DNA of 64,000 bases from Acidobacteriota bacterium (GCA_003577105.1 QEUQ01000009.1:1326-65325), one strand, 5' to 3'. Numbered from the stretch's first letter, positions 49,826-64,000 are shown. Notes: generated by a model not told the origin, from the sequence alone. Numbers and translations: made by a program.

Positions 49826-50680
49826 TCACGGGCCTGCCCGGCCTGCGGTATTGCCGGTCTGACCTGTAGTCCCACCCTGCTGCGGCCCAGGCGATGCCGG
49901 GATCTGGCCAGGCTCAGTGCCGGCGCCCGAAGGAGGTTGGGGAACGGGCGAGTCCGAACGAGGTACATTCATCTGCCCCGAGCAGTTTCCGAGGTTGTTA
50001 GGCTCCTGTCCCTCGGAGAATCCAGGCTGCGGCGGAGTACATCCGGCTTCTGGCGGACCTGGAATCTGGCCGCGCTGAGTTGGTGATCCGTCTGCGGGGT
50101 AGATCAGAGCCAGGTCTGTGTCACTCGGCGTCCACGGAAGCCCAGAATTTGTCGCGAACATCCGCCCGGCTATTTGGCTGTTCAGCCCACCAGTCTTTGA
50201 ATCAACGCTTATCTGCAGCTGATCGACCACCACAGATCGCCGGAGCTTCTCAAGACGGATTAGGTAGTCAATGGTCTGGAAGTAACCGCCCTCAATGCTC
50301 ACCGCCAGCTTGATCTCGGCCGCCATCAGCCCGCTTGCCTTCGGCGCAGTAGGAATCGTTGGTTTCAGCGACATCCACTTCACGCCAGCTTGCCGGGCTA
50401 TGTCGTAGTTCGCCCATATGAACTCTGCCAGGTCGGGTGTGTCGGGCACGTTCTGCCTGAATTCAACGGTAGCTGCTCGGATCGACGTTTCGTTGCGCTT
50501 TAGCTCTTGGCGCCTCGCAATGGTGCCTTCCAGCTGCTGGGTTCGATCCTTCGCGTCCTGGAGCCTCTGCTGTTCCTTCGTGAGAGTAGACCCCTGACCT
50601 TGAAAGACGAAGAGGAACCACACCGCGATAATCGTTACCGCGACTACGGCACTGACTACAATTGGAAGATAGCGCTTCAC
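49826..50680 (-). CDS. pilO: Type IV pilus assembly protein PilO-like
   Basis: Single N-terminal TM helix, a coiled-coil region (QQRLQDAKDRTQQLEGTIARRQELK), then a PilO-like periplasmic domain. It immediately follows pilN. The start is uncertain (GTG at 50678-50680 vs 50749). Confidence 0.7.
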   Translation of the reverse strand: MKRYLPIVVSAVVAVTIIAVWFLFVFQGQGSTLTKEQQRLQDAKDRTQQLEGTIARRQELKRNETSIRAATVEFRQNVPDTPDLAEFIWANYDIARQAGVKWMSLKPTIPTAPKASGLMAAEIKLAVSIEGGYFQTIDYLIRLEKLRRSVVVDQLQISVDSKTGGLNSQIAGRMFATNSGLPWTPSDTDLALIYPADGSPTQRGQIPGPPEAGCTPPQPGFSEGQEPNNLGNCSGQMNVPRSDSPVPQPPSGAGTEPGQIPASPGPQQGGTTGQTGNTAGRAGP

Positions 50681-51519
50681 TTCGCACCTCCAGTGGTTGG
50701 GCGACTTGCGCCACCCGTAGCGCCCGCACCGTAGTAGGAGTGCCCGCATGAACCAGTTCCGGCGCCCGCCAGGTTGTCAAAGCCTCTAGCGGCACAGCGC
50801 CCCATCCATCCCCATGAGTACGGCGTGAGGTAGCTGGTTCCCTGGAAAGTCACAACCGGGAAGGACGTCGATCCTTCTCCTGAAGTCTCCTTCAGCGTCT
50901 GGCTCGTAATCCAAGCGTAGGTCATCGACGGCATGTTCCTATTGACTCGATATAGCCAATTGGCAACGTCTCGATGCGACTTGGCCGTAGCCGACACCTG
51001 CACAGTTCCGATCGGAGTCTTGTCACTTACCTTGATTTCCTTGCCTCCGCCGGAAGACTTCGGAGCAGTCGACGAGCTCGTCGATGGCTTAGCCGCCCCC
51101 CCGCTAATAGGCTTAGAAGCGGGCGCCTTCTTGCCAGCCTCTGGATCAACGAGGCCTTTGAAGGAAGTCAGGTAGACACCGTCAGGCATCGTCGCGGCGA
51201 TCTCCTGAAGCACCTTCGGCCAGCTGACTTCGTTCAGCCAGACGCTCTGGACGACCTTCTTCTGGTTATCGAAATTGCGCTGCAGCTCGTCAAGGTATTC
51301 CAGTTCGCGAGCTTTCAGCTCTAGCTCCTTGACCTTTTGTTCCTGCTTGTTCGCCTGGTCTCGCACGCTCTTCGCTTGAGCCGCTCTCAACAGCGTTATG
51401 ACAGCAAGTATTCCTATGAGCGCCGCCAGTCCGATAATTGCGTACACCCAAACCTGTCGCTGCCGGTTCTTCTCGCCAATCTCGGCTGGCAGCAAGTTGA
51501 TTCTGCGACGTGGCTCCAT
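50677..51519 (-). CDS. pilN: Type IV pilus assembly protein PilN
   Basis: Hallmark INLLP motif at the N-terminus, a TM helix, a coiled-coil and a periplasmic domain. The C-terminus is a Ser/Gly-rich low-complexity region. Confidence 0.8.
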   Translation of the reverse strand: MEPRRRINLLPAEIGEKNRQRQVWVYAIIGLAALIGILAVITLLRAAQAKSVRDQANKQEQKVKELELKARELEYLDELQRNFDNQKKVVQSVWLNEVSWPKVLQEIAATMPDGVYLTSFKGLVDPEAGKKAPASKPISGGAAKPSTSSSTAPKSSGGGKEIKVSDKTPIGTVQVSATAKSHRDVANWLYRVNRNMPSMTYAWITSQTLKETSGEGSTSFPVVTFQGTSYLTPYSWGWMGRCAARGFDNLAGAGTGSCGHSYYGAGATGGASRPTTGGAK

Positions 51520-51522
51520 CTG

Positions 51523-52584
51523 TCAGGCCTCCCCTAGTACTAGCCCAACAGCCACACTCATTAGCGGCTGTGCTTCGGCGAGCGCCTCTGTGGGCATTCC
51601 CAAGTTCGCGAGCTCTACAAACTGGAGCGGATGACCGGGTTCAACCGGAATTCCTAGTGCCGCCGAGAGCTTTTCACCAAGACCCGGGACACGCGATCCG
51701 CCACCGGACAAGATGATCCGTCCAACCGTTGCGGCGCTTGGCTGAGCCATGTAGAAGTCGAGTGAGCCTCTGATTTCATCGACAACCGCGGCGGCACGGT
51801 CATCAATAATTTGGACAGCTTGTTCACTGCCGGGCGGAGGCGCAGACCCTGGTACTGAGAGCTGCCTCTTCACCTGCTCGGCGGTCATGGGATCCATGGT
51901 GAGGCCCACCGACAGGGCCTCGGTGAAGTTGTTGCCGCCAAGTATCAGAATGCGAACGAAGCGTGGTTTCCCGTCTTCGTGGACGACGATGTTGGTGACT
52001 GAATGCCCGATATCAACGATGGCCTCGGCGGCGATCGGCTGGTCGAGTCCGTAGTCACTGACCAGCGACCTCAGCAGGGCCAGGGGGGAGAGATCGATCG
52101 CCTGTGGCGTCAACTTTGCGTATTCGAGAGCCCCGAGCATCTGCTCGATCATGTCGCGCTGCGCCGCAACGATGAGGACCCTCATCATTCGCTCGCCTTC
52201 AGGCCCTTGAATTTCGTCGAGAATCATGAAGTCGAGGATTGCCTCCTCAACTGGGATTGGAATGAATTCTTGTACCTGGAACTCCAGGGCGGCCCGCAGG
52301 TCCTCCTCGGCCATCCATGGAAGGTCCACCTGCCGTACAACTACCTTCTGGTTTGAGACTCCGAGGACGATGTTTCTCTTGCCCTTGAAGCCTGCCTGCG
52401 ACCACAGTCGTTGCAGCGCCTCACCCACTGCTGCAGGATCAGCTACCTCTCCGTCGCGCATCGCACCTGGTGGAACTTCGATTTGACCGAACTTCGTTAG
52501 TACCGGACGCGCCTTGCCAAGCATGAGCTCGGCGCCACGCACCGCGCTGGTTCCCAAGTCGAGTCCGATCACAGTCTTAGGCAC
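51523..52584 (-). CDS. pilM: Type IV pilus assembly protein PilM (actin-like ATPase fold)
   Basis: IGLDLGTSAVRGAEL N-terminus, a PilM/FtsA-like fold across 353 aa. Confidence 0.88.
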   Translation of the reverse strand: MPKTVIGLDLGTSAVRGAELMLGKARPVLTKFGQIEVPPGAMRDGEVADPAAVGEALQRLWSQAGFKGKRNIVLGVSNQKVVVRQVDLPWMAEEDLRAALEFQVQEFIPIPVEEAILDFMILDEIQGPEGERMMRVLIVAAQRDMIEQMLGALEYAKLTPQAIDLSPLALLRSLVSDYGLDQPIAAEAIVDIGHSVTNIVVHEDGKPRFVRILILGGNNFTEALSVGLTMDPMTAEQVKRQLSVPGSAPPPGSEQAVQIIDDRAAAVVDEIRGSLDFYMAQPSAATVGRIILSGGGSRVPGLGEKLSAALGIPVEPGHPLQFVELANLGMPTEALAEAQPLMSVAVGLVLGEA

Positions 52585-52586
52585 GG

Positions 52587-52781
52587 TCAGCCCCTCTCAA
52601 CCTGAACTGACGAACGCATCAAGTAAGAAACCAGGTCTTGCCGGCGGATCCTGTAACTTCTTCCGACCCTCACTGCGTCGAGCTGCCCGCGCTTTATGAG
52701 TCTGTAAACGGTCATGTTCGAGACTCGCATCATCGATGCCACCTCGCTGACCGTAAGAAGTTCAACTCTTGGGACGGCCAT
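52587..52781 (-). CDS. Small helix-turn-helix DNA-binding protein, excisionase/BldC (MerR-like) family
   Basis: 64 aa; LLTVSEVASMMRVSNMTVYRLIKRGQLDAVRVGRSYRIRRQDLVSYL matches the excisionase-family HTH. It ends 2 nt before the pilM start, making it the first gene of the pilMNO operon. Confidence 0.8.
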   Translation of the reverse strand: MAVPRVELLTVSEVASMMRVSNMTVYRLIKRGQLDAVRVGRSYRIRRQDLVSYLMRSSVQVERG

Positions 52782-53179: not shown

Positions 53180-53989
53180 TCACAAGCCACCCAGGAGCTT
53201 GGTATATGCGCTCCAGATGCCGCTGCCAACAAATAGCGCTGTGAGCGATCCGAGCGCGAGATACGGACCGAAGGGTATCGCTTTACCGAACTCACCTCGC
53301 CCAATGACGATCAGAAACAGGCCAAGAACGGTTCCATACGCGAACGACAAGAGCACGCCCGTCAACAGGACGGCCGCCCCGCTGAAACCAAGCACCATCC
53401 CTATCAGCAGCGCCAAACGAACATCGCCAAAGCCCATCCACTTGGGATTTACTTCGTGGATCAGCCGAAGCCCGCCGCTGAAACCAACTGCGCCCAGCAA
53501 AGAGACCCCTACTGAACCAGGGCGCCCCTCCATTACCGCCGCGATAGCCAACAACGGCAAACACAGCACCAGCGACCACCACACGATCCGCGACGGAATG
53601 CGCTTGTGTTCCAGATCCGTGACAGTAATCGTCACCAGAGCAAAAGAAAAGACTAGATACAGCGGCAATTCCCAAGCTAGGCCGGTCTCAGCGGCAATTG
53701 CCCCGAAGATTCCCGCCATTGCGATCTCGGTGAACAGATAGCGAGCTGGAATGCGCCATCCGCAGCTGCGACACCGCCCCCGGAGGAGCAAGAAAGACGC
53801 TAAGGGAATGTTTTCCCACCACTCAAGAGGCCTACAGCAGTTTGGGCAACGCGACGCCGGCCGAATCACTGACCGGCCTTCCGGTACTCTCGACGCCACA
53901 ACATTGGCGAACGAGCCGAATGCCAGACCCAAAGCCCCGGCACCCACAGCCAAAACCGCCCGCGCACCTTCACTCGAAGACATCTTCAC
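53180..53989 (-). CDS. pilD: Prepilin peptidase (A24 family, PilD)
   Basis: N-terminal tetracysteine zinc motif (CPNCCRPL...CRSCGWRI) and polytopic membrane domain with catalytic Asp motifs (DLEHKRIP, GFGDVRLAL). Confidence 0.88.
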   Translation of the reverse strand: MKMSSSEGARAVLAVGAGALGLAFGSFANVVASRVPEGRSVIRPASRCPNCCRPLEWWENIPLASFLLLRGRCRSCGWRIPARYLFTEIAMAGIFGAIAAETGLAWELPLYLVFSFALVTITVTDLEHKRIPSRIVWWSLVLCLPLLAIAAVMEGRPGSVGVSLLGAVGFSGGLRLIHEVNPKWMGFGDVRLALLIGMVLGFSGAAVLLTGVLLSFAYGTVLGLFLIVIGRGEFGKAIPFGPYLALGSLTALFVGSGIWSAYTKLLGGL

Positions 53990-54048: not shown

Positions 54049-54076
54049 AAATTAGCCCGCCAAAGCGGGCTAATTT
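54049..54076 (-). terminator. Hairpin terminator downstream of the pilin gene
   Basis: Perfect inverted repeat AAATTAGCCCGC-caaa-GCGGGCTAATTT located 34-61 nt after the pilin stop codon. Confidence 0.6.
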
Positions 54077-54109
54077 GCCGATTCTGCCTGCTGGCAGCAC
54101 TGAGTTAGA

Positions 54110-54649
54110 TCAGTGCCTCCAACCTGCTGAAGAATCCGTGCTAGCACCGGCTCCCGTGCAAGGGAACTCGAGTGCGTGACTACCATCACCAGTGGCTCCG
54201 CCACCGCCCTCATGGTCATAGCTGGTTCCGGTTCCGTTACCGCCATCGACCTTTGAGTCGCAAATGGAGAACTCATGCTGATGGGCGCTGAGCACAGTGA
54301 GTACAACCGTGCCGTCGACTGCTTGGGTACCTGTCGGCCCCGAGACAACGCCAACTTCGTTCTGACCCGTTGACGGGCCACCAGGCACCCACGTCAGAGC
54401 CTGCTCGATCCCCGCGAGGGTCGGCTGGTCCTGCGTATAGGCCTGAGAGTCGGTGTAGTACACGTTCTCAGCGGTCAATGCATTCCGGACGCTTGTCTGA
54501 GCTGCCCTGTCCTGGGCACGTTCCCGTGCGCCGAGGAAGGTCGGGATCGCGATAGCAATCAGGATGGCAATGATGAGCACCACGATCATGAGCTCGATGA
54601 GGGTGAAGCCCTCGTCGCGACCGGTAATTGATCCACGCATTTTCTTCAT
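54110..54649 (-). CDS. pilA: Type IV pilin (major pilin, class III signal peptide)
   Basis: Leader MKKMRGSITGRDEG followed by FTLIELMIVVLIIAILIAIAIPTF (prepilin peptidase site G|F, Glu+5). Strong RBS GGAGGTG 7 nt upstream of the ATG at 54647-54649. The upstream 42 codons in the ORF track are not part of the gene. Confidence 0.88.
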   Translation of the reverse strand: MKKMRGSITGRDEGFTLIELMIVVLIIAILIAIAIPTFLGARERAQDRAAQTSVRNALTAENVYYTDSQAYTQDQPTLAGIEQALTWVPGGPSTGQNEVGVVSGPTGTQAVDGTVVLTVLSAHQHEFSICDSKVDGGNGTGTSYDHEGGGGATGDGSHALEFPCTGAGASTDSSAGWRH

Positions 54650-54734
54650 ATAGTTCACCTCCTTCCCCAAAGAGGATTTGCATGCAGGCCAAAGCCTGCC
54701 CGCACACCTATCATCGGCGCCTACGGGCGGAATC

Positions 54735-54751
54735 TTGAGAACGGTTCTCAA
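54735..54751. promoter_or_regulatory. Perfect 17-bp palindrome TTGAGAAC-g-GTTCTCAA about 85 bp upstream of the pilin start codon; candidate operator
   Basis: Exact 8-bp inverted repeat with a 1-nt spacer in the pilC-pilin intergenic region. Confidence 0.5.
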
Positions 54752-54788
54752 TTTTCTCGACCAAACCGTTTCCACCTCGGGAATCTGC

Positions 54789-55949
54789 CTATTGGATCAA
54801 GTTCACAATATTGAACATTGGCATATAGAGCGCGATGACCATGCCACCGACAGCAATACCCATGACTGCGATCAGAAGCGGTTCGATCAGCGATGTCAGC
54901 GCGTCGACCGCCGCCGAAACCTCTTGGTCGTAGAACTCAGAGATCTTCAGAAGCATGGTGTCAATGGCACCCGTCTCCTCACCCACCGCCATCATCTGAA
55001 CCACCATCGGTGGGAACACCGAATGCTCCAAGAGGGGCCGTGCAATTGACTCACCCTCCCTCACGCTGGTTTGAACATCGATAATCGCTGCTGAAATCAC
55101 TCGATTGCCTACCGTTTGGCTGACGATATCAAGTGCTTCCAGAATCGGAACACCTGACTTGATCAGCTCAGCCAGGGTTCGAGTGAAGCGCGACAGGGCG
55201 ACTTTGTGAAAAAGGGGGCCGAAGATCGGAACCTTGATCAGGAATGTGTCCCAAATCATCTCCCCTTTGTCGGTCTTCTTCCAGGCCCGCAGCCCGAAGA
55301 CCGCACCAATGCTCAAGATTGCCAGTAGCCACCAGTAGTTCTTGACGATTTCCGATACGCCAATGAGCATCTGCGTAGGCGCCGGCAACTTGCCTCCGAG
55401 CTCGTCATAGAGCTTCTTGAACATCGGTACAACAAAGATCAGCATTGCGCTCACGATAAGCAGAACCATCACAAACACAACTACTGGGTACGTCATTGCG
55501 GACTTGACTTTGCCTCGCAACTCGACTTGCGATTCGATAGTCTCGGCGATCCTCACGAGTACGTGATCGAGGTTACCCCCGATCTCCCCGGCCCTTACCA
55601 TTGAGACATATAGATCATTGAATACTTTGGGGTGCTTCTCCAGTGCCCCGGAAAGCGATGACCCGGTTTCCACATCGTCACGGACCAGCCTGACGACATC
55701 AGCAAGGGTCGCAAACTGGCGGCTGAAGATCGACAGATCCTTCAGCTTTACGCGATTGCCACCAATAGAGATCTCCTTCTTGAGACCTCCGGCATCTTTC
55801 TCATCGATGGAGATAGGTATGTAACCCATCTCGCGTAATTTGGCAGCGACAACAGTGGTGTTGTCGGCGTCGAGCTCACCCTCGACGATTTGTCCCTGTT
55901 TGTCCCTTACTTTGTATACGAAAGTTCCAGCCACCGCTGCTCCTCTCAA
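54789..55949 (-). CDS. pilC: Type IV pilus inner-membrane platform protein PilC (GspF/T2SS-F family)
   Basis: Duplicated T2SS-F domains with three TM segments across 386 aa. Confidence 0.9.
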   Translation of the reverse strand: MRGAAVAGTFVYKVRDKQGQIVEGELDADNTTVVAAKLREMGYIPISIDEKDAGGLKKEISIGGNRVKLKDLSIFSRQFATLADVVRLVRDDVETGSSLSGALEKHPKVFNDLYVSMVRAGEIGGNLDHVLVRIAETIESQVELRGKVKSAMTYPVVVFVMVLLIVSAMLIFVVPMFKKLYDELGGKLPAPTQMLIGVSEIVKNYWWLLAILSIGAVFGLRAWKKTDKGEMIWDTFLIKVPIFGPLFHKVALSRFTRTLAELIKSGVPILEALDIVSQTVGNRVISAAIIDVQTSVREGESIARPLLEHSVFPPMVVQMMAVGEETGAIDTMLLKISEFYDQEVSAAVDALTSLIEPLLIAVMGIAVGGMVIALYMPMFNIVNLIQ

Positions 55950-57586
55950 CCGCGCCCGAGAAGGCGCATCAGGTCATCCTCGTTGGCGCAGCGCTCTCGC
56001 GCCAGGTCCAAAGAGATCCGCCCTGCTTTGACCAGGTCCGCAAGGGACTGGTCCATAGTCTGCATGCCGAATCGACCGCCAGCCTGCATGACTGAATAAA
56101 TCTGATGGGTCTTGCCCTCACGTATCAGATTTCGGACTGCTGGCGTAGCAATCAGAACCTCCACTGCTACCACGCGCCCTCGGCCATCTGCGGTCTGGCA
56201 AAGCTGCTGGGTGCAGACGGCCTGCAGTGAGGCGGCAAGCTGGACGCGCACTTGCTGCTGCTGATGCGGCGGAAAAACGTCGATAATTCTGTCAATTGAC
56301 TGCGGGCAGTCCTGCGTGTGGAGCGTGCCAAAGACCAAGTGGCCGGTCTCGGCAGCCGTGATTGCCGTCTGGATCGTCTCAAGGTCGCGCATTTCGCCGA
56401 CCAGGATCACATCTGGATCTTGGCGAAGAACGCGTTTGAGCGCATTCGCGAAACTGAGGGTGTCTTCTCCAACCTCGCGCTGGTTCACCACGGCGCGCTT
56501 GTGCGCGTGAAGGAACTCGATCGGGTCCTCAACAGTCATGATGTGAACGGGGCGTTCCCGGTTGATGATGTCGACGATCGATGCAAGAGTTGTTGACTTG
56601 CCTGAACCTGTAGGTCCCGTGACGAGCACCAGGCCGCGAGGTAATGCGGCAAAGGAAGTCAGGACTGGCGGCACCCCCAGCTTTTCGAGGGGAAGGATAT
56701 TCATCGGGATCACTCGCATGACCGAGCCGATCGAGTCCCGCTGGAAGAAAACATTGACCCTGAAGCGGGCTTTGCCTGGCAACGGATGGGACATATCGAG
56801 TTCCATCTCAGCCTCAAGCTTTTCGCGCTGTTTCTGCGTGAGAATCGCGTAGATCATCTTGCGAAGGGGCCCGGGCTTGAGGATCGGGAAGTCCGTTAGC
56901 GGATACAAGTCGCCGTGGACACGCACCACCGGATGCGTTCCCACCGTCAGGTGGAGGTCCGACGCGCCCTTCTCGAGGACTATCTCGAGCAATTCGTTGA
57001 CATGAATGTCTGCGGCGTCACGCTCCGGCTGTGCGGCCGGCGCCTGTTCCTTTACTCCCTGTGCAGCTTCAAGTAGGCGTTCATCTGCAACTGATACGTC
57101 GCCGGTCTTCAGACTTCCGTGTGTCTGAGGTGCTGCCGCAGCCGCTTCTGCCGCAGCGCCGTGCACCTGCTTGATGACGGCGGCAATCTCTCCCTTGTCG
57201 GCGAGGGCTGGAATCACCTGCCAACCGACACCCTGCTCAATTGCCTGAATAGCGTCTGAATTGTGTGGATCGCCCATCGCCACAAGAAGCTTGTCTTCTT
57301 CAAAGGCAACTGCAATCAAGTTGAACCGGACACACAGTTCCGGTGGAATCGCCGTAACCGCGTCGGGGTGGAGCGGTTGAGAAGCAAGATCGACAAACCT
57401 GAGGCCGCTTTGTTCAGCCAACGCGCCGAGAATCTGCTTCTCGCTCAGCCGGCCTTCATCGGTGAGCAACTTGAATAACGGGGTGCCTGTCGCCTGCTCC
57501 CGCCCGAGGGCATCCACCAGCTCTTCGCTGGAGAGAAGCTGCTTCTTTACGAGCAAGTCGCCTAGACGTTGAGACGCCGCGGACAT
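55946..57586 (-). CDS. pilT: Twitching-motility retraction ATPase PilT with an N-terminal GspE-N/MshEN-like extension of about 190 aa
   Basis: PilT core: Walker A GPTGSGKSTT, Asp/His boxes, and the PilT-specific AxRNLIRE motif (PAVRNLIREGKTHQI). The N-terminus contains RLGDLLVKKQLLSSEELVDALGREQ, resembling the T2SS-E N-domain/MshEN fold. Confidence 0.85.
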   Translation of the reverse strand: MSAASQRLGDLLVKKQLLSSEELVDALGREQATGTPLFKLLTDEGRLSEKQILGALAEQSGLRFVDLASQPLHPDAVTAIPPELCVRFNLIAVAFEEDKLLVAMGDPHNSDAIQAIEQGVGWQVIPALADKGEIAAVIKQVHGAAAEAAAAAPQTHGSLKTGDVSVADERLLEAAQGVKEQAPAAQPERDAADIHVNELLEIVLEKGASDLHLTVGTHPVVRVHGDLYPLTDFPILKPGPLRKMIYAILTQKQREKLEAEMELDMSHPLPGKARFRVNVFFQRDSIGSVMRVIPMNILPLEKLGVPPVLTSFAALPRGLVLVTGPTGSGKSTTLASIVDIINRERPVHIMTVEDPIEFLHAHKRAVVNQREVGEDTLSFANALKRVLRQDPDVILVGEMRDLETIQTAITAAETGHLVFGTLHTQDCPQSIDRIIDVFPPHQQQQVRVQLAASLQAVCTQQLCQTADGRGRVVAVEVLIATPAVRNLIREGKTHQIYSVMQAGGRFGMQTMDQSLADLVKAGRISLDLARERCANEDDLMRLLGRG

Positions 57587-57720: not shown

Positions 57721-59400
57721 CTAGACCACCACTCTCATGATCTCGTCGATTGCAGTTATTCCCAGTCGTACCTTGGCCAGGCCATCGAGACGAAGCGTCT
57801 TCATCCCTTCCATGACGGCTATCTTCTTCATCTCTTCAGACGTCCTGTGCTCTACGACCATTCGCTCGATCTCTTCGCTCAAGATCATGATCTCGTGGAG
57901 CGCGACTCGCCCTCGATATCCCGTATTCGAACAGGACTTGCACCCTGCGGGCTTGTATATCACCGGTAATTCCTCTTCTTCGTCAAGCGGCCACCCGCAC
58001 TCGACGAGTGCCTCCTCTGTCGGCTGATAGGGCTCCTTACACTTCTCACATAGCCGCCGTGCAAGGCGCTGCGCAAGCACGCAATCCAGCGCCGAACCAA
58101 CTAGGAACGCCTCGACGCCCATCTCGAAAAGGCGTGTAGCGGCAGACGGCGCGTCATTTGTGTGAAGCGTCGAAAGGACCAGGTGACCGGTCAAGGCCGA
58201 CTCAATCGCGATTGTCGCGGTCTCTTTGTCTCTGATTTCACCCACCATCATGATGTCGGGGTCGCAGCGCACCAGCGATCGAAGGGCCGAAGCGAATGTC
58301 AGTCCAGCTCGCGTGTTCACCTGGATTTGAGAAAGGCCCGACAGCCTGAACTCAACTGGATCTTCGACTGTCATGACGTTCTTCGCGTCGTCGTTAATAA
58401 CGTTGAGAATCGAGTAGAGGGTCGTGGTCTTGCCTGATCCTGTCGGACCTGTTGCCAGTATCGCTCCGTATGGCTTGTTGTATGCGTTTGCCAGCTTCTT
58501 CGCGTTGTCCTCAAGTAGCCCCAGTTGTTCAAGCGGCACAATGCCTGCCTGCTTGTCGAGGATTCTCATGACGAACTTCTCGCCCCAAACCGTCGGAACG
58601 CACGCGGCGCGCAGGTCGATCTCACGCCCCGAGATACTCATTGAGATCCGGCCATCTTGAGGAATTCGCCGCTCGGCGATGTCCATGTCCGACATGATCT
58701 TCAGGCGGCTTACAAGCGAGTTCTGCACGCTCTTAGGGCTCCGCATATGTTCGTGCAAAACTCCGTCAATGCGATAGCGGATTCGAAGGTCCTTGGCCTG
58801 GGGCTCAATGTGGATGTCCGATGCCCGATCCTGTACAGCTTGGGCGATCAGGGTGTTTGCAAGCTTGACTATGGGAGCGTCTTCAACGACCTCTGTCAGT
58901 CCCTCAAGGGCATCGCTATCGTCGTCGCCTGCGGCAATCTCGCCAGTCAGCGCCTCGACGTCGGTCTCCATGCGAGCCATCTTGTCGAGCGCATCCATGA
59001 CTGCGGCCTGCGTGGCGACGACGACTTCGAGTTCTCGCTTAGTGACGCGCGCGACGTCGTCACGTGCAATCACGTTCTGGGGATCGCTCATTGCGACGAT
59101 GAGCCGTTCCTCATCGAAGCCGATCGGTATCAGCGAATACCGGCGAGCGATGTTGTCAGGTACGAGTGAGGCCGCAACCGGATCGATCCCGTACTCAAGA
59201 AGATCGACGAACTCATAGCCTGCCTGGTCGGCAAGGATCGCCAGAAGGTCATCCTCGGTGAGGATTTCCATTTCGATCAGGACGCGGCTGAGCGCCTTCC
59301 CGGTCTCTTCGACCTCGGCCAATACCTCGTCGAGTTGCGTTGCATCGATGATGCCTTCCTCGACAAGAAGCATTCCGAAACTGGTGACATCTTCGGACAA
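57721..59400 (-). CDS. pilB: Type IV pilus assembly (extension) ATPase PilB/GspE family
   Basis: N-terminal MshEN-like motif (FGMLLVEEGIIDATQLDEVLAEVEE), Walker A GPTGSGKTTT, and a tetracysteine zinc motif (CEKCKEPY...CKSCSNTGYRGR). Confidence 0.9.
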   Translation of the reverse strand: MSEDVTSFGMLLVEEGIIDATQLDEVLAEVEETGKALSRVLIEMEILTEDDLLAILADQAGYEFVDLLEYGIDPVAASLVPDNIARRYSLIPIGFDEERLIVAMSDPQNVIARDDVARVTKRELEVVVATQAAVMDALDKMARMETDVEALTGEIAAGDDDSDALEGLTEVVEDAPIVKLANTLIAQAVQDRASDIHIEPQAKDLRIRYRIDGVLHEHMRSPKSVQNSLVSRLKIMSDMDIAERRIPQDGRISMSISGREIDLRAACVPTVWGEKFVMRILDKQAGIVPLEQLGLLEDNAKKLANAYNKPYGAILATGPTGSGKTTTLYSILNVINDDAKNVMTVEDPVEFRLSGLSQIQVNTRAGLTFASALRSLVRCDPDIMMVGEIRDKETATIAIESALTGHLVLSTLHTNDAPSAATRLFEMGVEAFLVGSALDCVLAQRLARRLCEKCKEPYQPTEEALVECGWPLDEEEELPVIYKPAGCKSCSNTGYRGRVALHEIMILSEEIERMVVEHRTSEEMKKIAVMEGMKTLRLDGLAKVRLGITAIDEIMRVVV

Positions 59401-59529
59401 CGCTTCACCCTCCCGCGATGGTTCGCACTGCCGCTACTACTGAACCGCCAGTCACTCTACGCGCATCTCCGTACGCCGTGACTCGCGTATCTCATTGTAT
59501 CGGCCCGCCCGCTTCACGCCTTGACGCGG

Positions 59530-60717
59530 TCACGACTCTCTTGTGACCTTGCCTCGCGATGGGCGGCCGACGAACATATCGGGCGCACGCCTTGGCCGCG
59601 CATACAGCTTCTCCGGCATCGACGGCCCGGCAACAAGCTCGCTCCACTGAAAGAACAATCCAAACAACGGATGGTCTGCTTCCAGGAAAACTGCCGATCC
59701 GTCGCGGAACCCCAAGACGACGTGGCGCACATCCGGTTCAGCGGCAAAGGCAGGGGGCCCGACTCTGGGTGGTGGCAGTTCGTTGCGATCCGACACCTGC
59801 CCGGGTGTCGGTACCGCAGGAGGAGACGCGACTCTTTCCGCGCTCTGATCTACTTCCTGTTCGACCGATGTGCGAGCTATTGCAGCCGGTGGAGGTTGCT
59901 CGGTTTCGAGCGTGACCTCGGGTAGCGGAGTGACCGGACCGGTGTCGCGCTCGGGTGCGACTGATGGCAGTGGCGGGATCGGGCCGGTGTCGCGGGCAGC
60001 GACTACTGGTGGCGGTGGAGTGACCGGACCGGTGTCGCGCTCGGGTGCATCGAGATGTGCGGCGGCGTTTGCGAGCGGCGAATCCATGAGGGATCCGCGG
60101 GGCCCATCACCTGCCATGTGCACCTCGGGGCCCGGTGCCGAATCGTCATCGTCCGCCTCGCCGAAATCAAGGTCATCCAGGATTCCTGCTAGTGGCTGAG
60201 TTCTGTGCTCCAGGATCGAAGACGCGGCCGGCTGGGGAGCCACAGGAGCCCCGGGAGATGGAACGGTCCAGGTCTGCCTTTGCTCTTGGCTGCTGAATTC
60301 GTACGGATCGACCTGCGACCCAGGGAAGTCCTGCTGGACCTGCCCGTAAACCGCTGGCAGTGGAGGAGGCGGCGGCGGCGCAAAGTGGGCCGGGGGCGGA
60401 GCATAAGGCGATTCGGCGTGAGTGCCGACCTCATATCCACCGGCCATGGCTCGGTCAACAGACGCTTGTGTGGATGCAGGCAAATTCCACTCGGGGGTGG
60501 GTGGGACAACCGAACTTGGAGACGCGAGAGAGTATCCGCTCCCGTGTGGCTCATCAGATGTTCGGCTAAATAAATCCTCAAGCTGAGACGAGGGCTCTGC
60601 GGAGAGCGCTGGCCCATCGGGAGGCGGGAAATACCCGGGGGCAGTCGGCACGCCTTCGGCGGCCGTGGAGGGGTCTTCCTCACCTTGGGGCGGGAGGCTG
60701 AAATCCATCCCAGTCAC
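59530..60717 (-). CDS. Proline-rich, predicted disordered protein with tandem PERDTGPVTPLP repeats and a ~70-aa C-terminal globular domain. Last gene of the GTPase module upstream of pilB.
   Basis: 395-aa ORF dominated by P/A/S with low complexity. It carries three or more imperfect repeats (APERDTGPVTPPPP / ARDTGPIPPLPS / APERDTGPVTPLPE). The C-terminal segment is VRHVVLGFRDGSAVFLEADHPLFGLFFQWSEL. It starts 5 nt after the GTPase gene ends. Confidence 0.55.
   Translation of the reverse strand: MTGMDFSLPPQGEEDPSTAAEGVPTAPGYFPPPDGPALSAEPSSQLEDLFSRTSDEPHGSGYSLASPSSVVPPTPEWNLPASTQASVDRAMAGGYEVGTHAESPYAPPPAHFAPPPPPPLPAVYGQVQQDFPGSQVDPYEFSSQEQRQTWTVPSPGAPVAPQPAASSILEHRTQPLAGILDDLDFGEADDDDSAPGPEVHMAGDGPRGSLMDSPLANAAAHLDAPERDTGPVTPPPPVVAARDTGPIPPLPSVAPERDTGPVTPLPEVTLETEQPPPAAIARTSVEQEVDQSAERVASPPAVPTPGQVSDRNELPPPRVGPPAFAAEPDVRHVVLGFRDGSAVFLEADHPLFGLFFQWSELVAGPSMPEKLYARPRRAPDMFVGRPSRGKVTRES
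59905..60050. repeat. About three imperfect tandem DNA repeats of ~44 bp (GGAGTGACCGGACCGGTGTCGCGCTCGGGTGC-type) inside the Pro-rich gene
   Basis: Near-identical units at ~59925-59957 and ~60012-60046, with a degenerate copy between them. They encode the PERDTGPVTPLP protein repeats. Confidence 0.7.
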
Positions 60718-60722
60718 ACCCC

Positions 60723-61301
60723 CTATGTCGCCGCAGCCGCGGGGGCACTCTCATCGAGCATTGCCAATACCGCGTAGAGGAGAGCCAGAAGTACGTCCTT
60801 GGCGCTCTGGCGGCTGACAGCTTCACACGGAACCACAACCTCATCGCCCTTCAGGCCGAGGCTCTTACGGACAGCCTCTATGGCGCCCTCGTCACCGGTC
60901 GCCCGGTTTGCTGCAACCACAAAAGGGACCTCCGCTAGACCCTTGAAGTATTCGAGGATCTTTCTGGCCTCATCCAAAGACTCCTCGCGAGTCACGTCCA
61001 CCATGACGATGAAACCAAGCATGCCCCGCGCGAGGACATCCCACATGAAGTCGAACCTCTCCTGCCCCGGGGTACCAAACAGATATAGGACTATCTCATC
61101 GCCCTCAAGCTGAAATGTGATCTTTCCCCAGTCCATTGAGACCGTCGTCATGCCCTTAACAGCCCGGCTACCGTCTGAGACCGGCTGCTCTGACGAGAAG
61201 AGCTGTAGCTCCGAAAGAGCACTGATGAAGGTTGTCTTGCCAGCGGCGAATGGACCCGTGACGACAACCTTGACCGAGGTGCTATTCCCCGGCGCAGCCA
61301 C
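60723..61301 (-). CDS. Ras-like small GTPase of the MglA/CvnD family
   Basis: KVVVTGPFAAGKTTFI P-loop, TPGQERF switch II (DxxGQ-like), and a (V)DVT region. Length and architecture parallel MglA and the conservon CvnD. It starts 2 nt after the DUF4388 gene ends. Confidence 0.8.
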   Translation of the reverse strand: MAAPGNSTSVKVVVTGPFAAGKTTFISALSELQLFSSEQPVSDGSRAVKGMTTVSMDWGKITFQLEGDEIVLYLFGTPGQERFDFMWDVLARGMLGFIVMVDVTREESLDEARKILEYFKGLAEVPFVVAANRATGDEGAIEAVRKSLGLKGDEVVVPCEAVSRQSAKDVLLALLYAVLAMLDESAPAAAAT

Positions 61302-61303
61302 GC

Positions 61304-62686
61304 TCAGAGCTCCTTGACTCCGGAAATCAGGCGCTGAATCAAGGCCTTGTTCACGTCTCCGCTCTTGATGCTTGGCGGCCCGTGCGGCTCAGAGTCGACT
61401 GCCGCCACAGCGTTGCCCGCTGTTGACGCTCGCGCCCTTAGCGGTGGACCGTCCTGGTTGCGCGGACCGCTATCGCCGGATCCGCCTTCTCCTGAAACCC
61501 ACAACTGGCTGAACTCCTTTGCCAGTGCGGCAGTGTTCACGCGGCGGCCCCCTGTGGGGCTACCGCCTCGACCTTTTTTTGAACCACCACCGGAGGACTC
61601 GGCTGCCTCACCGCCATCAGGCGTATTGGAGAACCCGAGCAGGTCGTCGAGAAGGTCAGCGTCGTCGCTGACCTTGGAGACGGAGTCGGCCGAGAGACTC
61701 TCAAACGCGGAGCCCTCCCCCGAGTCGTCTTCGTCGAATGAAAGTGCCTCGGCAGCCTCAGCAAGAGACAGTCCGCCGAGTCCGAGATCGTCTTCTGCTG
61801 CCTCTTCTTCAGCCTCTTCCTCGAACTCCTCGACCTCTTCCTCGAACTCCTCGACCTCGGCCTCTTCCTCGAATTCCTCGACCTCGGCCTCTTCCTCAAA
61901 TTCCTCGACGGCTTCCTCGTCTGGTTCCTCGGACTCAAGTTCCGGTATTTCTTCGACTTCTTCTTCATACGCCGGAGCTCGTGTGCCGGAAGCCTCGCCA
62001 ACCTCAACAAGCCCTGCGCTCACGAGTCCGTGGAGTACCTGGCAAGTCTTGAACTCGCCTTCCCCAAGAGCCTCCGCAACGTCTGTGACCCTTCGGGTAC
62101 CGTCCACGGCCGAGATGATTCGCCAATCCTCTCGGCTCAATGTCACTTCCAAGTGATCCTCTGGGAGGCTGCGAACAAGGCTGAGACTGCAATCCACCGA
62201 CGGGATCGACTCCTTGATGATTTCCCACTCATCAAGGCGGCGGCGGGCCTCTGCAATCAACGGGTCAACTTGCAGCGGGAAGATCGAGCCGATCGTGTGA
62301 GTCTCCTCAGCCCTGAAGTCGAAGCGACCTTGCTCCCACCGGAACAAGTCAAAGATCGCCTCTTCGATCCTCTCTCTGATGAAGTCCTCAAACGCAGTTC
62401 TGTCGATATCTGAGTTCTTAAGGAGCGCCTCTCCCACTGACTCCTTTCGACCCGCCTTGGCCACGGCGGCCTTCCAAGCATCAGCTTCGACGATCCCCGA
62501 ACGAACCAGACTCTTACCTAAGTCGTCTCCCTTCTTGGCGGTCGCGTAGTAGATGTCGCCCTTCTGAAAAAAGACCGTCCCTGATCCGGTGCTGCCTCTT
62601 AGGTGAAGCGCACCCGTCTTGTCCCGCGAGAGGAGCTGGAACACGTCGGGAAGAGTGAAATCGTCAAGGCTTCCCTGTAGTGCCAT
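61304..62686 (-). CDS. DUF4388/PATAN-domain protein with a long acidic (EEFEEEAEV)n repeat linker and a Gly/Ser-rich C-terminus
   Basis: N-terminal GSLDDFTLPDVFQLLSRDKTGALHL matches the DUF4388 (PATAN) signature. The central section has more than ten acidic E/F/V heptad-like repeats. The C-terminus is low complexity. Confidence 0.7.
   Translation of the reverse strand: MALQGSLDDFTLPDVFQLLSRDKTGALHLRGSTGSGTVFFQKGDIYYATAKKGDDLGKSLVRSGIVEADAWKAAVAKAGRKESVGEALLKNSDIDRTAFEDFIRERIEEAIFDLFRWEQGRFDFRAEETHTIGSIFPLQVDPLIAEARRRLDEWEIIKESIPSVDCSLSLVRSLPEDHLEVTLSREDWRIISAVDGTRRVTDVAEALGEGEFKTCQVLHGLVSAGLVEVGEASGTRAPAYEEEVEEIPELESEEPDEEAVEEFEEEAEVEEFEEEAEVEEFEEEVEEFEEEAEEEAAEDDLGLGGLSLAEAAEALSFDEDDSGEGSAFESLSADSVSKVSDDADLLDDLLGFSNTPDGGEAAESSGGGSKKGRGGSPTGGRRVNTAALAKEFSQLWVSGEGGSGDSGPRNQDGPPLRARASTAGNAVAAVDSEPHGPPSIKSGDVNKALIQRLISGVKEL
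61814..61912. repeat. 27-bp tandem repeat (CTCTTCCTCGAAyTCCTCGACCTCGGC), about 3.8 copies, inside the DUF4388 gene; encodes the acidic EEFEEEAEV repeats
   Basis: Direct inspection: consecutive 27-nt units with 1-2 mismatches, plus one truncated 21-nt copy. Confidence 0.75.
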
Positions 62687-62700
62687 TACTGCCTACCTTC

Positions 62701-63162
62701 CTAACCGAGCGGATCTGCCGCTGTGCGCAGCTCTGGCATTTGCACAACCGTCGGCTGATCGAGAATCGATGCAATCTTTGAGGATGTGTGGCGCATCTCG
62801 TAGAGGATCAAACCGATCTTCCCGGAGGGCCTTGTAATCGCTGCAAGGACCGCGGTCTCCCCTGCCGCCATCAAGAAGACAAAACCGTATTCACCCTCAA
62901 CGAATATCTGCGCCAGGTCCCCGCGACCGAGCCCCTCGGCGGCCTTTTCCCCAAGGGAAAGCAAAGCCGCCGACATTGCTCCGAGCCGGTCCTCCTCGAT
63001 CTGAGGCGGCAAAGCCGAAGCCATCGGAAGCCCATCCATTGAGACAACAGCAGCGGCCTCGACTTCAGTACTTGCCTGTACGAACTCGTCAAGAGCCATC
63101 GCCAATTGCTCGGCCCTGCTCGACATCAAACCTCCCGTGATGCTCCGAATTCCGACTCGCAC
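62701..63162 (-). CDS. Roadblock/LC7 (MglB-like) domain protein
   Basis: VVSMDGLPMASA...RLGAMSAALLSLGEKAAEGLG...GFVFLMAAGETAVLAAI pattern of Roadblock/LC7 family proteins (MglB/CvnB-like). First gene of the four-gene module. Confidence 0.8.
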   Translation of the reverse strand: MRVGIRSITGGLMSSRAEQLAMALDEFVQASTEVEAAAVVSMDGLPMASALPPQIEEDRLGAMSAALLSLGEKAAEGLGRGDLAQIFVEGEYGFVFLMAAGETAVLAAITRPSGKIGLILYEMRHTSSKIASILDQPTVVQMPELRTAADPLG

Positions 63163-63288: not shown

Positions 63289-64000
63289 CTATTCCGCGCG
63301 TCGCTCCGCCAGCGCAGCTGTAGCAGCAGCCTCCATAGTAGCCCGTGGCGGGCTATGGCCTGTCCAAATCTCAACCTGGATCGCAGCTTGGGCTATGAGC
63401 ATTCCCAATCCCGACTCCGCACTAATACCAGCCCTTCGGGCCGATTTCACAAGCGCCGTCTCCGTTGGCTGATATACGAGGTCATAAATGAATGACTGCC
63501 CGCCGAACCATCTACAGTCAACAAGTTCGTCGTCAGGGCCCAGCTGCGGGGTAGCACTAATGATCAGTTCGGCTTCGCCAGCCGCACTTCGAATGTCTTC
63601 AGCGCCGACTGGCGCAATCTCACCTATAGCAATGGAGCGCTCACTTGCGGCTTCCGTCAGGTCCCGTGCAATCGATGCCGCGGCTTCCGTTCGGCGCGCC
63701 ACGATTTCGACTGAACGAGCTCCGGATGTGGCAGCTCCCCACGCGGCAGCCCTAGCCGCTCCACCGGCACCGAGAATCAAGACTTTTCGCCCGGCGATGG
63801 GAATTCCGGCGGCCGCTTCGAGTCCCTCGATCAGTCCGGCGACATCGGTGTTGTCACCGACTAGCTCTCCGGAATCCCAGGAAATGGTATTGACCGCCCC
63901 GACAACCGTCGCCGTCTCCGTCAAGCGGTCAAGGTGAGCAATGACTTCAACTTTGTGCGGAATCGTCACTGAGAGTCCGGCAATTCCCAGAGCCCGCATC
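63289..64000 (-). CDS. aroE: Shikimate dehydrogenase, C-terminal ~236 aa; the N-terminus lies beyond the window end
   Basis: SVTIPHK substrate motif and a GAGGAARA NADP-binding glycine-rich motif. The ORF is open to the window edge. Confidence 0.85.
   Translation of the reverse strand, partial: MRALGIAGLSVTIPHKVEVIAHLDRLTETATVVGAVNTISWDSGELVGDNTDVAGLIEGLEAAAGIPIAGRKVLILGAGGAARAAAWGAATSGARSVEIVARRTEAAASIARDLTEAASERSIAIGEIAPVGAEDIRSAAGEAELIISATPQLGPDDELVDCRWFGGQSFIYDLVYQPTETALVKSARRAGISAESGLGMLIAQAAIQVEIWTGHSPPRATMEAAATAALAERRAE

Follow-up and report, generated by a model that had tools for sequence, protein, structure and literature searches.

A small-GTPase module with a PATAN-domain partner adjoins the type IVa pilus genes in Actinomycetota

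A 64,000-nt stretch of DNA (QEUQ01000009.1:1326-65325; the window, to whose whole length all coordinates refer) carries four minus-strand genes directly upstream of a type IVa pilus cluster. They encode a Roadblock/LC7 protein, a DUF4388/PATAN-domain protein (the PATAN partner), a small Ras-like GTPase and a fourth, Pro-rich protein. An earlier note on this DNA had described the genes as tightly packed and free of any kinase, with an acidic repeat in the PATAN partner and Pro-rich tandem repeats in the fourth product, and all of this was borne out. The open reading frame (ORF) listing packs the four genes into 59530-63162, separated by 14, 2 and 5 nt, and leaves 129 nt between the last ORF and pilB (57721-59400). 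The Roadblock/LC7, DUF4388/PATAN and Ras-like assignments were recovered by Pfam search, and both repeats are real by Tandem Repeats Finder. Pfam and NCBIfam searches found no kinase domain in the four proteins or their neighbours. The features of the module and its immediate surroundings are listed below; ORF starts are those of the longest ORF, and true start codons may differ.

63289-63999, minus strand: aroE, cut by the window end
62701-63162, minus strand: Roadblock/LC7 protein, MglB/CvnB-type partner and putative GTPase-activating protein (GAP), 153 residues (Pfam PF03259)
61304-62686, minus strand: PATAN-domain partner, 460 residues, with PATAN domain, winged helix, acidic disordered linker and C-terminal helix (Pfam PF14332)
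62369-62524, minus strand: alpha-clip insert of the PATAN domain, residues ~55-106, MshEN-like tandem motif
61988-62281, minus strand: middle winged-helix-like domain of the PATAN partner, residues ~136-233
61828-61909, minus strand: 27-nt tandem repeat in the acidic linker of the PATAN partner (Tandem Repeats Finder)
61307-61357, minus strand: conserved C-terminal amphipathic helix of the PATAN partner, DVNKALIQRLISGVKEL (alignment and AlphaFold2)
60723-61301, minus strand: small Ras-like GTPase, 192 residues, putatively of the PATAN-linked MglA 'Group 5' type (Pfam, motifs)
59530-60717, minus strand: fourth gene, 395 residues, Pro-rich disordered N-terminal part and conserved C-terminal motif
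59927-60040, minus strand: 45-nt tandem repeat in the Pro-rich region of the fourth gene (Tandem Repeats Finder)
59626-59730, minus strand: 'V.LGF.DGS...L...P' motif of the fourth gene, residues 330-364 (multi-locus alignment)
59401-59529, minus strand: intergenic spacer between module and pilB, 129 nt
57721-59400, minus strand: PilB extension ATPase with N-terminal MshEN domain (Pfam T2SSE 3e-135 and MshEN 2e-18; TIGR02538 1e-188; c-di-GMP motif model 7e-13)
55946-57586, minus strand: PilT-family retraction ATPase, 546 residues, with N-terminal MshEN domain (TIGR01420 3e-146, residues 196-537)
54789-55949, minus strand: PilC platform protein (T2SSF 8e-57)

The order of these genes is conserved. 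Five neighbourhoods examined first all read alaS-ruvX-mltG-aroE-Roadblock-PATAN-GTPase-pilB-pilT-pilC, with GTPase identities of 53-72%. We also scanned one genome per species with an alignment of the GTPase and its relatives and labelled the neighbours by profile search (L-numbers denote loci). The module is followed by pilB in 11 of 14 other Actinomycetota loci. Metagenomes scanned with aligned PATAN partners from actinobacteria yielded 80 loci. Where there was enough sequence, the PATAN gene has the Roadblock gene directly upstream in 60 of 61 loci and the GTPase gene downstream in 58 of 59. Among the informative metagenome loci, defined as those with at least 800 nt after the GTPase gene, a same-strand pilB follows the module in 28 of 30, at a gap of -19 to 1559 nt. 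The earlier note's claim that the module is physically linked to a pilus locus therefore holds across Actinomycetota, although not universally, since an Acidothermaceae/Frankiales subclade carries polysaccharide genes instead. The CarB protein of the window is 62-66% identical to proteins from Acidimicrobiia, Acidimicrobiales and Candidatus Aquicultor metagenome-assembled genomes (MAGs), which would place the window within an uncultured Actinomycetota lineage.

Individual loci vary around this arrangement. L047 has pilB alone of the pilus genes. At L037:5076-6995, from an Actinomycetota MAG, an extra PilB-like gene lies upstream of the Roadblock gene besides the downstream pilB, and no PilT was detected in the locus.

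Relatives of the GTPase fall into groups with different neighbours. PATAN-linked GTPases of Actinomycetota are 47-55% identical to that of the window and sit in the order aroE, Roadblock, PATAN, GTPase, pilB-pilT-pilC, with the pilus genes directly downstream. Those of Chloroflexota (Anaerolineae; 48-55%) follow a PATAN protein of ~270 residues, sometimes with a Roadblock gene downstream, and have no pilus genes within 10 kb. Aquificales (46-47%) show the order Roadblock, PATAN, GTPase with no pilus genes in the 10-kb flanks, and a Caldisericum locus has PATAN and GTPase genes with pilC and pilT 8 kb off. Finally, loci in Streptomyces, Mycobacterium and other Actinomycetota (37-44%) consist of a Roadblock gene, a gap of ~400 nt and a GTPase gene, with no pilus genes. 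The two of these that were checked, L070 and L058, encode a histidine kinase, a Roadblock protein, a DUF742 protein and a GTPase and are true conservons.

The earlier note had seen the module as conservon-like, with a PATAN protein replacing the DUF742 partner. This description is misleading. The P-loop reads TGPFxAGKT in PATAN-linked GTPases versus AGGFGVGKT in those of conservons. In a neighbour-joining tree (no bootstrap, midpoint rooted), conservon GTPases form one long-branched clade apart from all PATAN-linked sequences. The window GTPase lies outside that clade and groups with the PATAN-linked type, which is also found in Chloroflexota, Aquificales and Caldisericum. Within the module, Pfam gave no match to DUF742 (PF05331) at E up to 0.01.

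Two further observations concern the neighbours of these other groups. L075:2907-7647, from an Acidimicrobiales MAG, is a conservon-type GTPase locus with a PATAN ORF on the opposite strand ~3 kb upstream, and is the sole conservon-type locus with a PATAN gene nearby. In Anaerolineae (Chloroflexota loci within L011-L051, e.g. L028:11353-11979 and L032:10559-11356), the PATAN-GTPase pair is followed by genes for an alpha/beta hydrolase, a V4R/MetOD1-like protein and a hexapeptide-repeat transferase in 13-15 of 21 loci. The V4R/MetOD1-like match, at 25 bits, falls below the cutoff of 31. V4R and the TRAPP Bet3 fold are related, and this neighbour could represent another association of a GTPase with a regulator.

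The GTPase matched ATP_bind_1 (7e-17), Ras (7e-11) and Arf (1e-5) in Pfam and TIGR00231 (2e-10) in NCBIfam. A hallmark of MglA proteins is a G3 motif in which Thr replaces the usual Asp and is followed by the catalytic Gln (TxxGQ). The window protein carries G1 GPFAAGKT, G3 FGTPGQ and G4 NRAT (N132-R-A-T), and F75-G-T77-P-G-Q80 of G3 is invariant across the aligned PATAN-linked and conservon relatives. Prokaryotic MglA homologues have been sorted into five groups, of which Group 2 is the conservon GTPase (Wuichet and Sogaard-Andersen 2014, Genome Biol Evol; PMC4316618). Between G1 and G2, the MglA family has an insertion when compared with the small GTPases of eukaryotes and archaea (PMC4316618); the window protein has it too, with ~28 residues lying between GKT24 and T52/T53. 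The AlphaFold2 model places an extra strand at residues 35-41, at low confidence (pLDDT <50 for 37-54). Foldseek assigned the model a Ras-like fold, with MglA 6izw_A among the matches. Because a PDB sequence search and Foldseek returned generic Rab/Ras matches, with MglA ranked 30th, they cannot discriminate between subfamilies.

The G4 motif of the GTPase is degenerate. The canonical motif [NT]KxD is given for MglA Groups 1, 4 and 5 (PMC4316618), but the window protein has NRAT and most Actinomycetota relatives have NRAxG. The motif reads NKQD in the Chloroflexota and Aquificales relatives and NCFD or NEFD in conservons. A 3-residue insertion after the G2 strand (QLEGDE region, residues 63-68) is shared by the GTPases of the window's lineage (window, L001, L004 and L006) and is missing from every other PATAN-linked and conservon GTPase.

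The Roadblock protein matched Robl_LC7 (PF03259) at E 2.2e-18. Its nearest solved structures are actinobacterial: 7f8m (4e-22), CvnB5 3leq (4e-11) and Rv3364c (8e-11). NCBIfam gave no meaningful family for either the Roadblock protein or the PATAN partner.

The PATAN partner matched DUF4388/PATAN (PF14332) at E 1.2e-28 over residues 4-155. Pfam found no receiver domain (Response_reg) in it, and a search of PDB sequences gave no match. The AlphaFold2 model has a pLDDT of ~90 over residues 1-233, disorder from 234 to 441 and a helix at 444-459. The same architecture is common to all phyla aligned: the PATAN domain comes first, then a domain of ~100 residues with a winged helix at its end, then the linker and the C-terminal helix. 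The long acidic linker occurs in the alignment only in Actinomycetota orthologs. In the window it contains a repeat of period 27 (3.0 copies, 94% matches) that encodes acidic EEF(E)EEAEV. Despite the variable linker, the C-terminal helix (..VNKsLllRLIaGVRgL) stands invariably at the very end of the protein in Actinomycetota, Chloroflexota, Aquificales and Caldisericum. An extended form of the locus was seen at L009:5189-9991, from an uncultured Actinomycetota MAG, where three tandem Roadblock genes precede a PATAN partner of 1130 residues with a very long acidic repeat linker.

Within the PATAN domain, the alpha-clip insert shares homology with the MshEN module at the PilB N-terminus. The published MshEN motif, which binds cyclic di-GMP (c-di-GMP), consists of two 24-residue motifs with a 5-residue spacer, and a score of at least 9 is reached in 1.7e-4 of background windows. 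The alpha-clip of the window protein matches 9 and 7 of 11 positions with a 4-residue spacer, the L005 ortholog matches 11 and 10 with a longer spacer, and some orthologs reach 11 of 11. Foldseek aligned 54 alpha-clip residues to MshE bound to c-di-GMP at a root-mean-square deviation of 1.7 A, and PilF was also matched structurally. A hidden Markov model (HMM) built from PATAN partners only matched PilB residues ~2-60 through the alpha-clip (E 7e-7 to 4e-5). The NCBIfam c-di-GMP motif model had no match in the PATAN partner. The alpha-clip/MshEN relationship was noted by Makarova et al. 2006, as cited in Han et al. (bioRxiv 10.1101/2021.06.11.447907).

In every Actinomycetota ortholog, the winged-helix domain carries a net acidic charge (-2 to -6). 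DNA binding is therefore unlikely in Actinomycetota, and a protein-binding role is favoured. Aligned to DUF742, the winged-helix segment gave an hhalign probability of 91%; a relaxed Pfam scan picked up DUF742 in 3 of 19 members, at best with E 0.08 and behind the generic TrmB and MarR families. Homology of this domain to DUF742/CvnC was rejected as more than a weak lead, because generic winged-helix families score as well or better. The structural similarity of the PATAN partner to GATOR1 NPRL2/3 is weak.

The fourth protein matched no Pfam or NCBIfam family beyond a sub-threshold GspB match in NCBIfam, and its C-terminal region was also blank in Pfam. Its Pro-rich repeat has a period of 45 (2.5 copies) and encodes ERDTGPVTP-type units. 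Orthologs occur in the relatives L001 and L004, and the repeat-bearing N-terminal part is restricted to the lineage of the window. The last 85 residues contain the motif V.LGF.DGS...L....P, which is shared with small ORFs of 56-91 residues at the same position in other lineages (aligned from the window, L001, L004, L006, L007, L022, L034, L040 and L047). An HMM of this motif also detected the unseeded locus L013 (E 6e-7), and the motif was found in 28 of 42 metagenome loci. Judged from these comparisons, the fourth ORF is a real gene and a conserved component of the module. RomY was considered as a homologue of the fourth gene and set aside, the likeness being one of analogy.

Downstream of pilC the cluster continues on the minus strand as follows.

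54110-54775, minus strand: pilin, start probably internal to the longest ORF (N_methyl motif, ORF residues 55-77)
53180-53989, minus strand: prepilin peptidase PilD (A24_N_bact 2e-29, Peptidase_A24 1.5e-10)
52587-52781, minus strand: HTH_17 (excisionase/MerR-like) protein, 64 residues, between pilD and pilM
51523-52584, minus strand: PilM (PilM_2 and FtsA matches on the L001 ortholog)
50677-51519, minus strand: PilN (PF05137 2e-5)
after pilN, minus strand: aroC, aroK, aroB, a prolidase-type M24 peptidase gene and efp

PilB, PilT, PilC, pilin, prepilin peptidase, PilM and PilN of a type IVa pilus system are all encoded here. PilT itself carries an MshEN domain at residues 7-59 (MshEN 3.5e-13; c-di-GMP motif model NF053729 2.5e-10). 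An MshEN domain is also present on the PilT orthologs of L001 and L005 and absent from the L007 PilT (465 residues). The small HTH_17 gene keeps its position between pilD and pilM in L001, L005 and L009, and its product may be a dedicated regulator of the pilus cluster. In the region 42236-63999, module and pilus cluster together split an otherwise conserved actinobacterial shikimate locus, separating aroE from aroC-aroK-aroB-(M24)-efp. At L009, aroE sits between the GTPase gene and pilB instead. The pilB gene starts with TTG, preceded by a GGGAGGG ribosome-binding site. In the spacer (59401-59529, minus strand), a consensus scan found no terminator-like or sigma-70-like site and Rfam matched no family, both searches being judged uninformative. 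Rfam also matched rsmX weakly at the 3' end of the pilin ORF (54050-54178, minus strand), with 26 bits where the gathering score is 56 (E 0.15), most likely by chance.

We lean towards the reading that the module is an MglA 'Group 5'/MglB/PATAN switch acting on the type IVa pilus motor, and that it forms part of the pilus cluster in Actinomycetota. The protein contacts, the GAP role and the effect on pili are proposed from precedents in Myxococcus, Bdellovibrio and Synechocystis. The GTPase would cycle between two nucleotide states, and the Roadblock protein, probably a dimer, would act as its GAP, as MglB does for MglA. The PATAN partner would serve as effector or adaptor. [quoted passage not shown] The small fourth protein would be an accessory factor. 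The output would be control of when or where pili extend and retract. The module is probably co-transcribed with the pil genes, the spacer having no terminator-like site.

Several observations weigh against a dedicated pilus switch. The linkage is not universal: the metagenome locus L125 has glycosyltransferase genes instead, and L136, also from a metagenome, has neither pilus nor glycosyltransferase genes. At L013 (a Frankiales MAG), L089 (the cultured Acidothermaceae bacterium B102, AP028633.1) and L090, the module is followed by glycosyltransferase genes and a Wzx-type flippase; at L089:9287-20682, as at L090, L013 and L125 of related MAGs, the same aroE-Roadblock-PATAN-GTPase-small-ORF module precedes the polysaccharide genes. 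The closely related PATAN-GTPase pairs of Chloroflexota likewise show no pilus gene within 10 kb. With NRAT at G4, the GTPase lacks both the Lys and the Asp that normally give guanine specificity, so that nucleotide preference, and even switch behaviour, is uncertain. The Roadblock protein is CvnB-like rather than MglB-like, MglB scoring E 0.4-1. Pairwise BLASTP of the alpha-clip with the N-termini of PilB and PilT gave no alignment; their homology is visible only by profiles and structure. Group 5 modules, finally, are known from a gene catalogue alone. Some of these points would fit a general regulator of polarity or surface structures that resides beside aroE and acts on pili, exopolysaccharide or distant targets, with pilus linkage as one of several contexts and not a dedicated function. 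We regard this as a serious but distinctly less probable explanation. The module stays by aroE while the genes downstream become glycosyltransferases and a flippase (L013, L089, L090, L125), the PATAN-GTPase pairs of Chloroflexota, Aquificales and Caldisericum are not beside pilus genes, and the MglA of Myxococcus controls two motility systems (PMC4316618). However, in Actinomycetota pilB lies immediately downstream in 28 of 30 metagenome loci and most genome loci, and the alpha-clip/PilB homology together with published PATAN-PilB binding points to the pilus motor. In the neighbour-joining tree, moreover, the GTPases of L013, L089 and L090 group tightly as a single subclade nested within the pilus-linked clade. 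This nesting suggests that pilus linkage is ancestral in the phylum and that the polysaccharide context is a secondary replacement.

Other explanations fare worse. If the PATAN partner were a GTPase-controlled transcription factor, its winged helix would bind DNA and switch on the downstream pilus or polysaccharide operon; the net acidic charge of that domain makes this reading weak in Actinomycetota, and we consider it improbable. The earlier note had itself raised the possibility of an ordinary conservon, with histidine kinase and DUF742 protein, that neighbours pilus genes by chance in one genome. The best Pfam match of the GTPase is ATP_bind_1, as in CvnD-type proteins, the solved relatives closest to the Roadblock protein are of CvnB type, and the winged-helix segment aligns with DUF742. 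Yet the module encodes neither histidine kinase nor DUF742 protein, both of which are present in true conservon loci, and generic winged-helix families resemble the segment no less than DUF742 does. Conservon GTPases are 37-44% identical, differ in G1 and G4 and form a separate clade, and the pilus linkage recurs over dozens of loci. Domains, motifs, tree and recurrent linkage together refute the chance-conservon explanation, which we regard as almost certainly wrong. Conversely, conservons might descend from the module. In a combined reading that we hold to be unlikely, though less so than a transcription factor, the PATAN partner is a dual-input adaptor and conservons evolved from the module. 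The alpha-clip would either bind c-di-GMP or associate with the MshEN domains of PilB and, unusually, PilT, and the winged helix and C-terminal helix would sense which nucleotide state the GTPase is in. If true, one protein would integrate a G-protein switch with c-di-GMP and choose between pilus extension and retraction. On the conservon side, the PATAN domain may have been lost, leaving CvnC as a winged-helix remnant, and a histidine kinase recruited. Such descent is allowed by the DUF742 alignment, the shared position between Roadblock and GTPase genes, the CvnB-like Roadblock protein and the intermediate GTPase motifs.

To our knowledge, type IVa pili in Actinomycetota have been little studied, and the module offers a starting point for them as well as a candidate evolutionary precursor of conservons. 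With switch, partners and presumed targets (PilB, PilT, PilC) in a single tightly packed cluster, the locus gives an MglA-PATAN-PilB axis its strongest genomic backing to date, and the compact set of proteins makes the PATAN-pilus hypothesis directly testable. It bears on the open question of PATAN control of type IV pili outside cyanobacteria. Its practical weight is limited for now, because the carriers found are mostly uncultured and the one cultured carrier found, Acidothermaceae bacterium B102, is polysaccharide-linked.

Parts of this picture were already on record. Genes of MglA Groups 1 and 5 'occasionally' lie near genes for PATAN proteins (PMC4316618). For Group 5, Table S2 of that study lists MglB>PATAN>MglA in Aquificae (e.g. 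Aquifex aeolicus aq_1844), PATAN>MglA in Chloroflexi, and variants in Deinococcus-Thermus and Cyanobacteria. Of its three actinobacterial Group 5 entries, one has a PATAN gene, Acidothermus cellulolyticus Acel_1323 (<MglA<PATAN<MglB, 193 residues); pili and secretion ATPases are nowhere mentioned in the supplement. MglA/MglB homologues regularly adjoin genes for PATAN proteins according to Han et al. (bioRxiv 10.1101/2021.06.11.447907), who showed that the PATAN domain of Synechocystis PixE binds the N-terminal domains of PilB1 and PilC and suffices to reverse phototaxis. They posed a conserved role of PATAN in pilus regulation as an open question. Type IV pili are under MglA/MglB control in Myxococcus, where MglA governs two motility systems (PMC4316618), and in Bdellovibrio (PMC13343842). 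A literature search, with subscription journals outside its reach, returned no paper describing the actinobacterial pilus linkage, and the linkage is unmentioned in a 2024 review of PilB cofactors and a 2026 conservon paper. The earlier note's view of an undescribed GTPase switch is thus correct in part: the type of module was catalogued in 2014 as MglA Group 5 (PMC4316618), whereas its linkage to pilus genes appears undescribed.

Among named systems, Group 5 is the closest. It shares the order Roadblock>PATAN>GTPase, a GTPase of ~190 residues and relatives in the same phyla (Actinomycetota, Chloroflexota, Aquificales); the identical neighbourhood, and the presence of Acidothermaceae bacterium B102 (L089) in the same clade, would place the window GTPase in this group. 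The module of the window differs in being joined to pilB-pilT-pilC and in its fourth conserved small gene, acidic linker and G4 NRAT. The CvnA-D conservons (Komatsu 2006, as cited in PMC4316618; PMC13343842) resemble it in occurring in Actinomycetota, in pairing a Roadblock protein with a small GTPase and in encoding a winged-helix protein between the two; its Roadblock protein is CvnB-like, and the G5 region of its GTPase resembles the 'DAR' motif. Unlike conservons, the module has a PATAN domain and lacks the CvnA kinase and DUF742, and CvnD differs from its GTPase in identity (37-44%), G1 and G4 motifs, a 3-residue indel and clade.

The MglA/MglB system of Myxococcus xanthus (with RomR/RomX and RomY) also combines a Ras-like GTPase bearing TxxGQ with a Roadblock partner and a type IV pilus connection, and RomY (PMC9481161), a small accessory protein, is a loose analogue of the fourth gene. 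However, the M. xanthus MglA belongs to Group 1, has an intrinsic arginine finger and is encoded away from the pil genes and its partners, and the M. xanthus MglB is only marginally similar to the window Roadblock protein (E 0.4-1). The cyanobacterial PatA-type regulators (PixG, PixE and PilG, which join PATAN to a receiver domain) share a PATAN domain with alpha-clip, and their link to the pilus motor through PilB1 and PilC is experimental in Synechocystis. The window protein differs from them in having no receiver domain and, in its C-terminal half, a winged helix, linker and terminal helix. In the module, a GTPase would supply the input, in place of phosphorylation or a photoreceptor.

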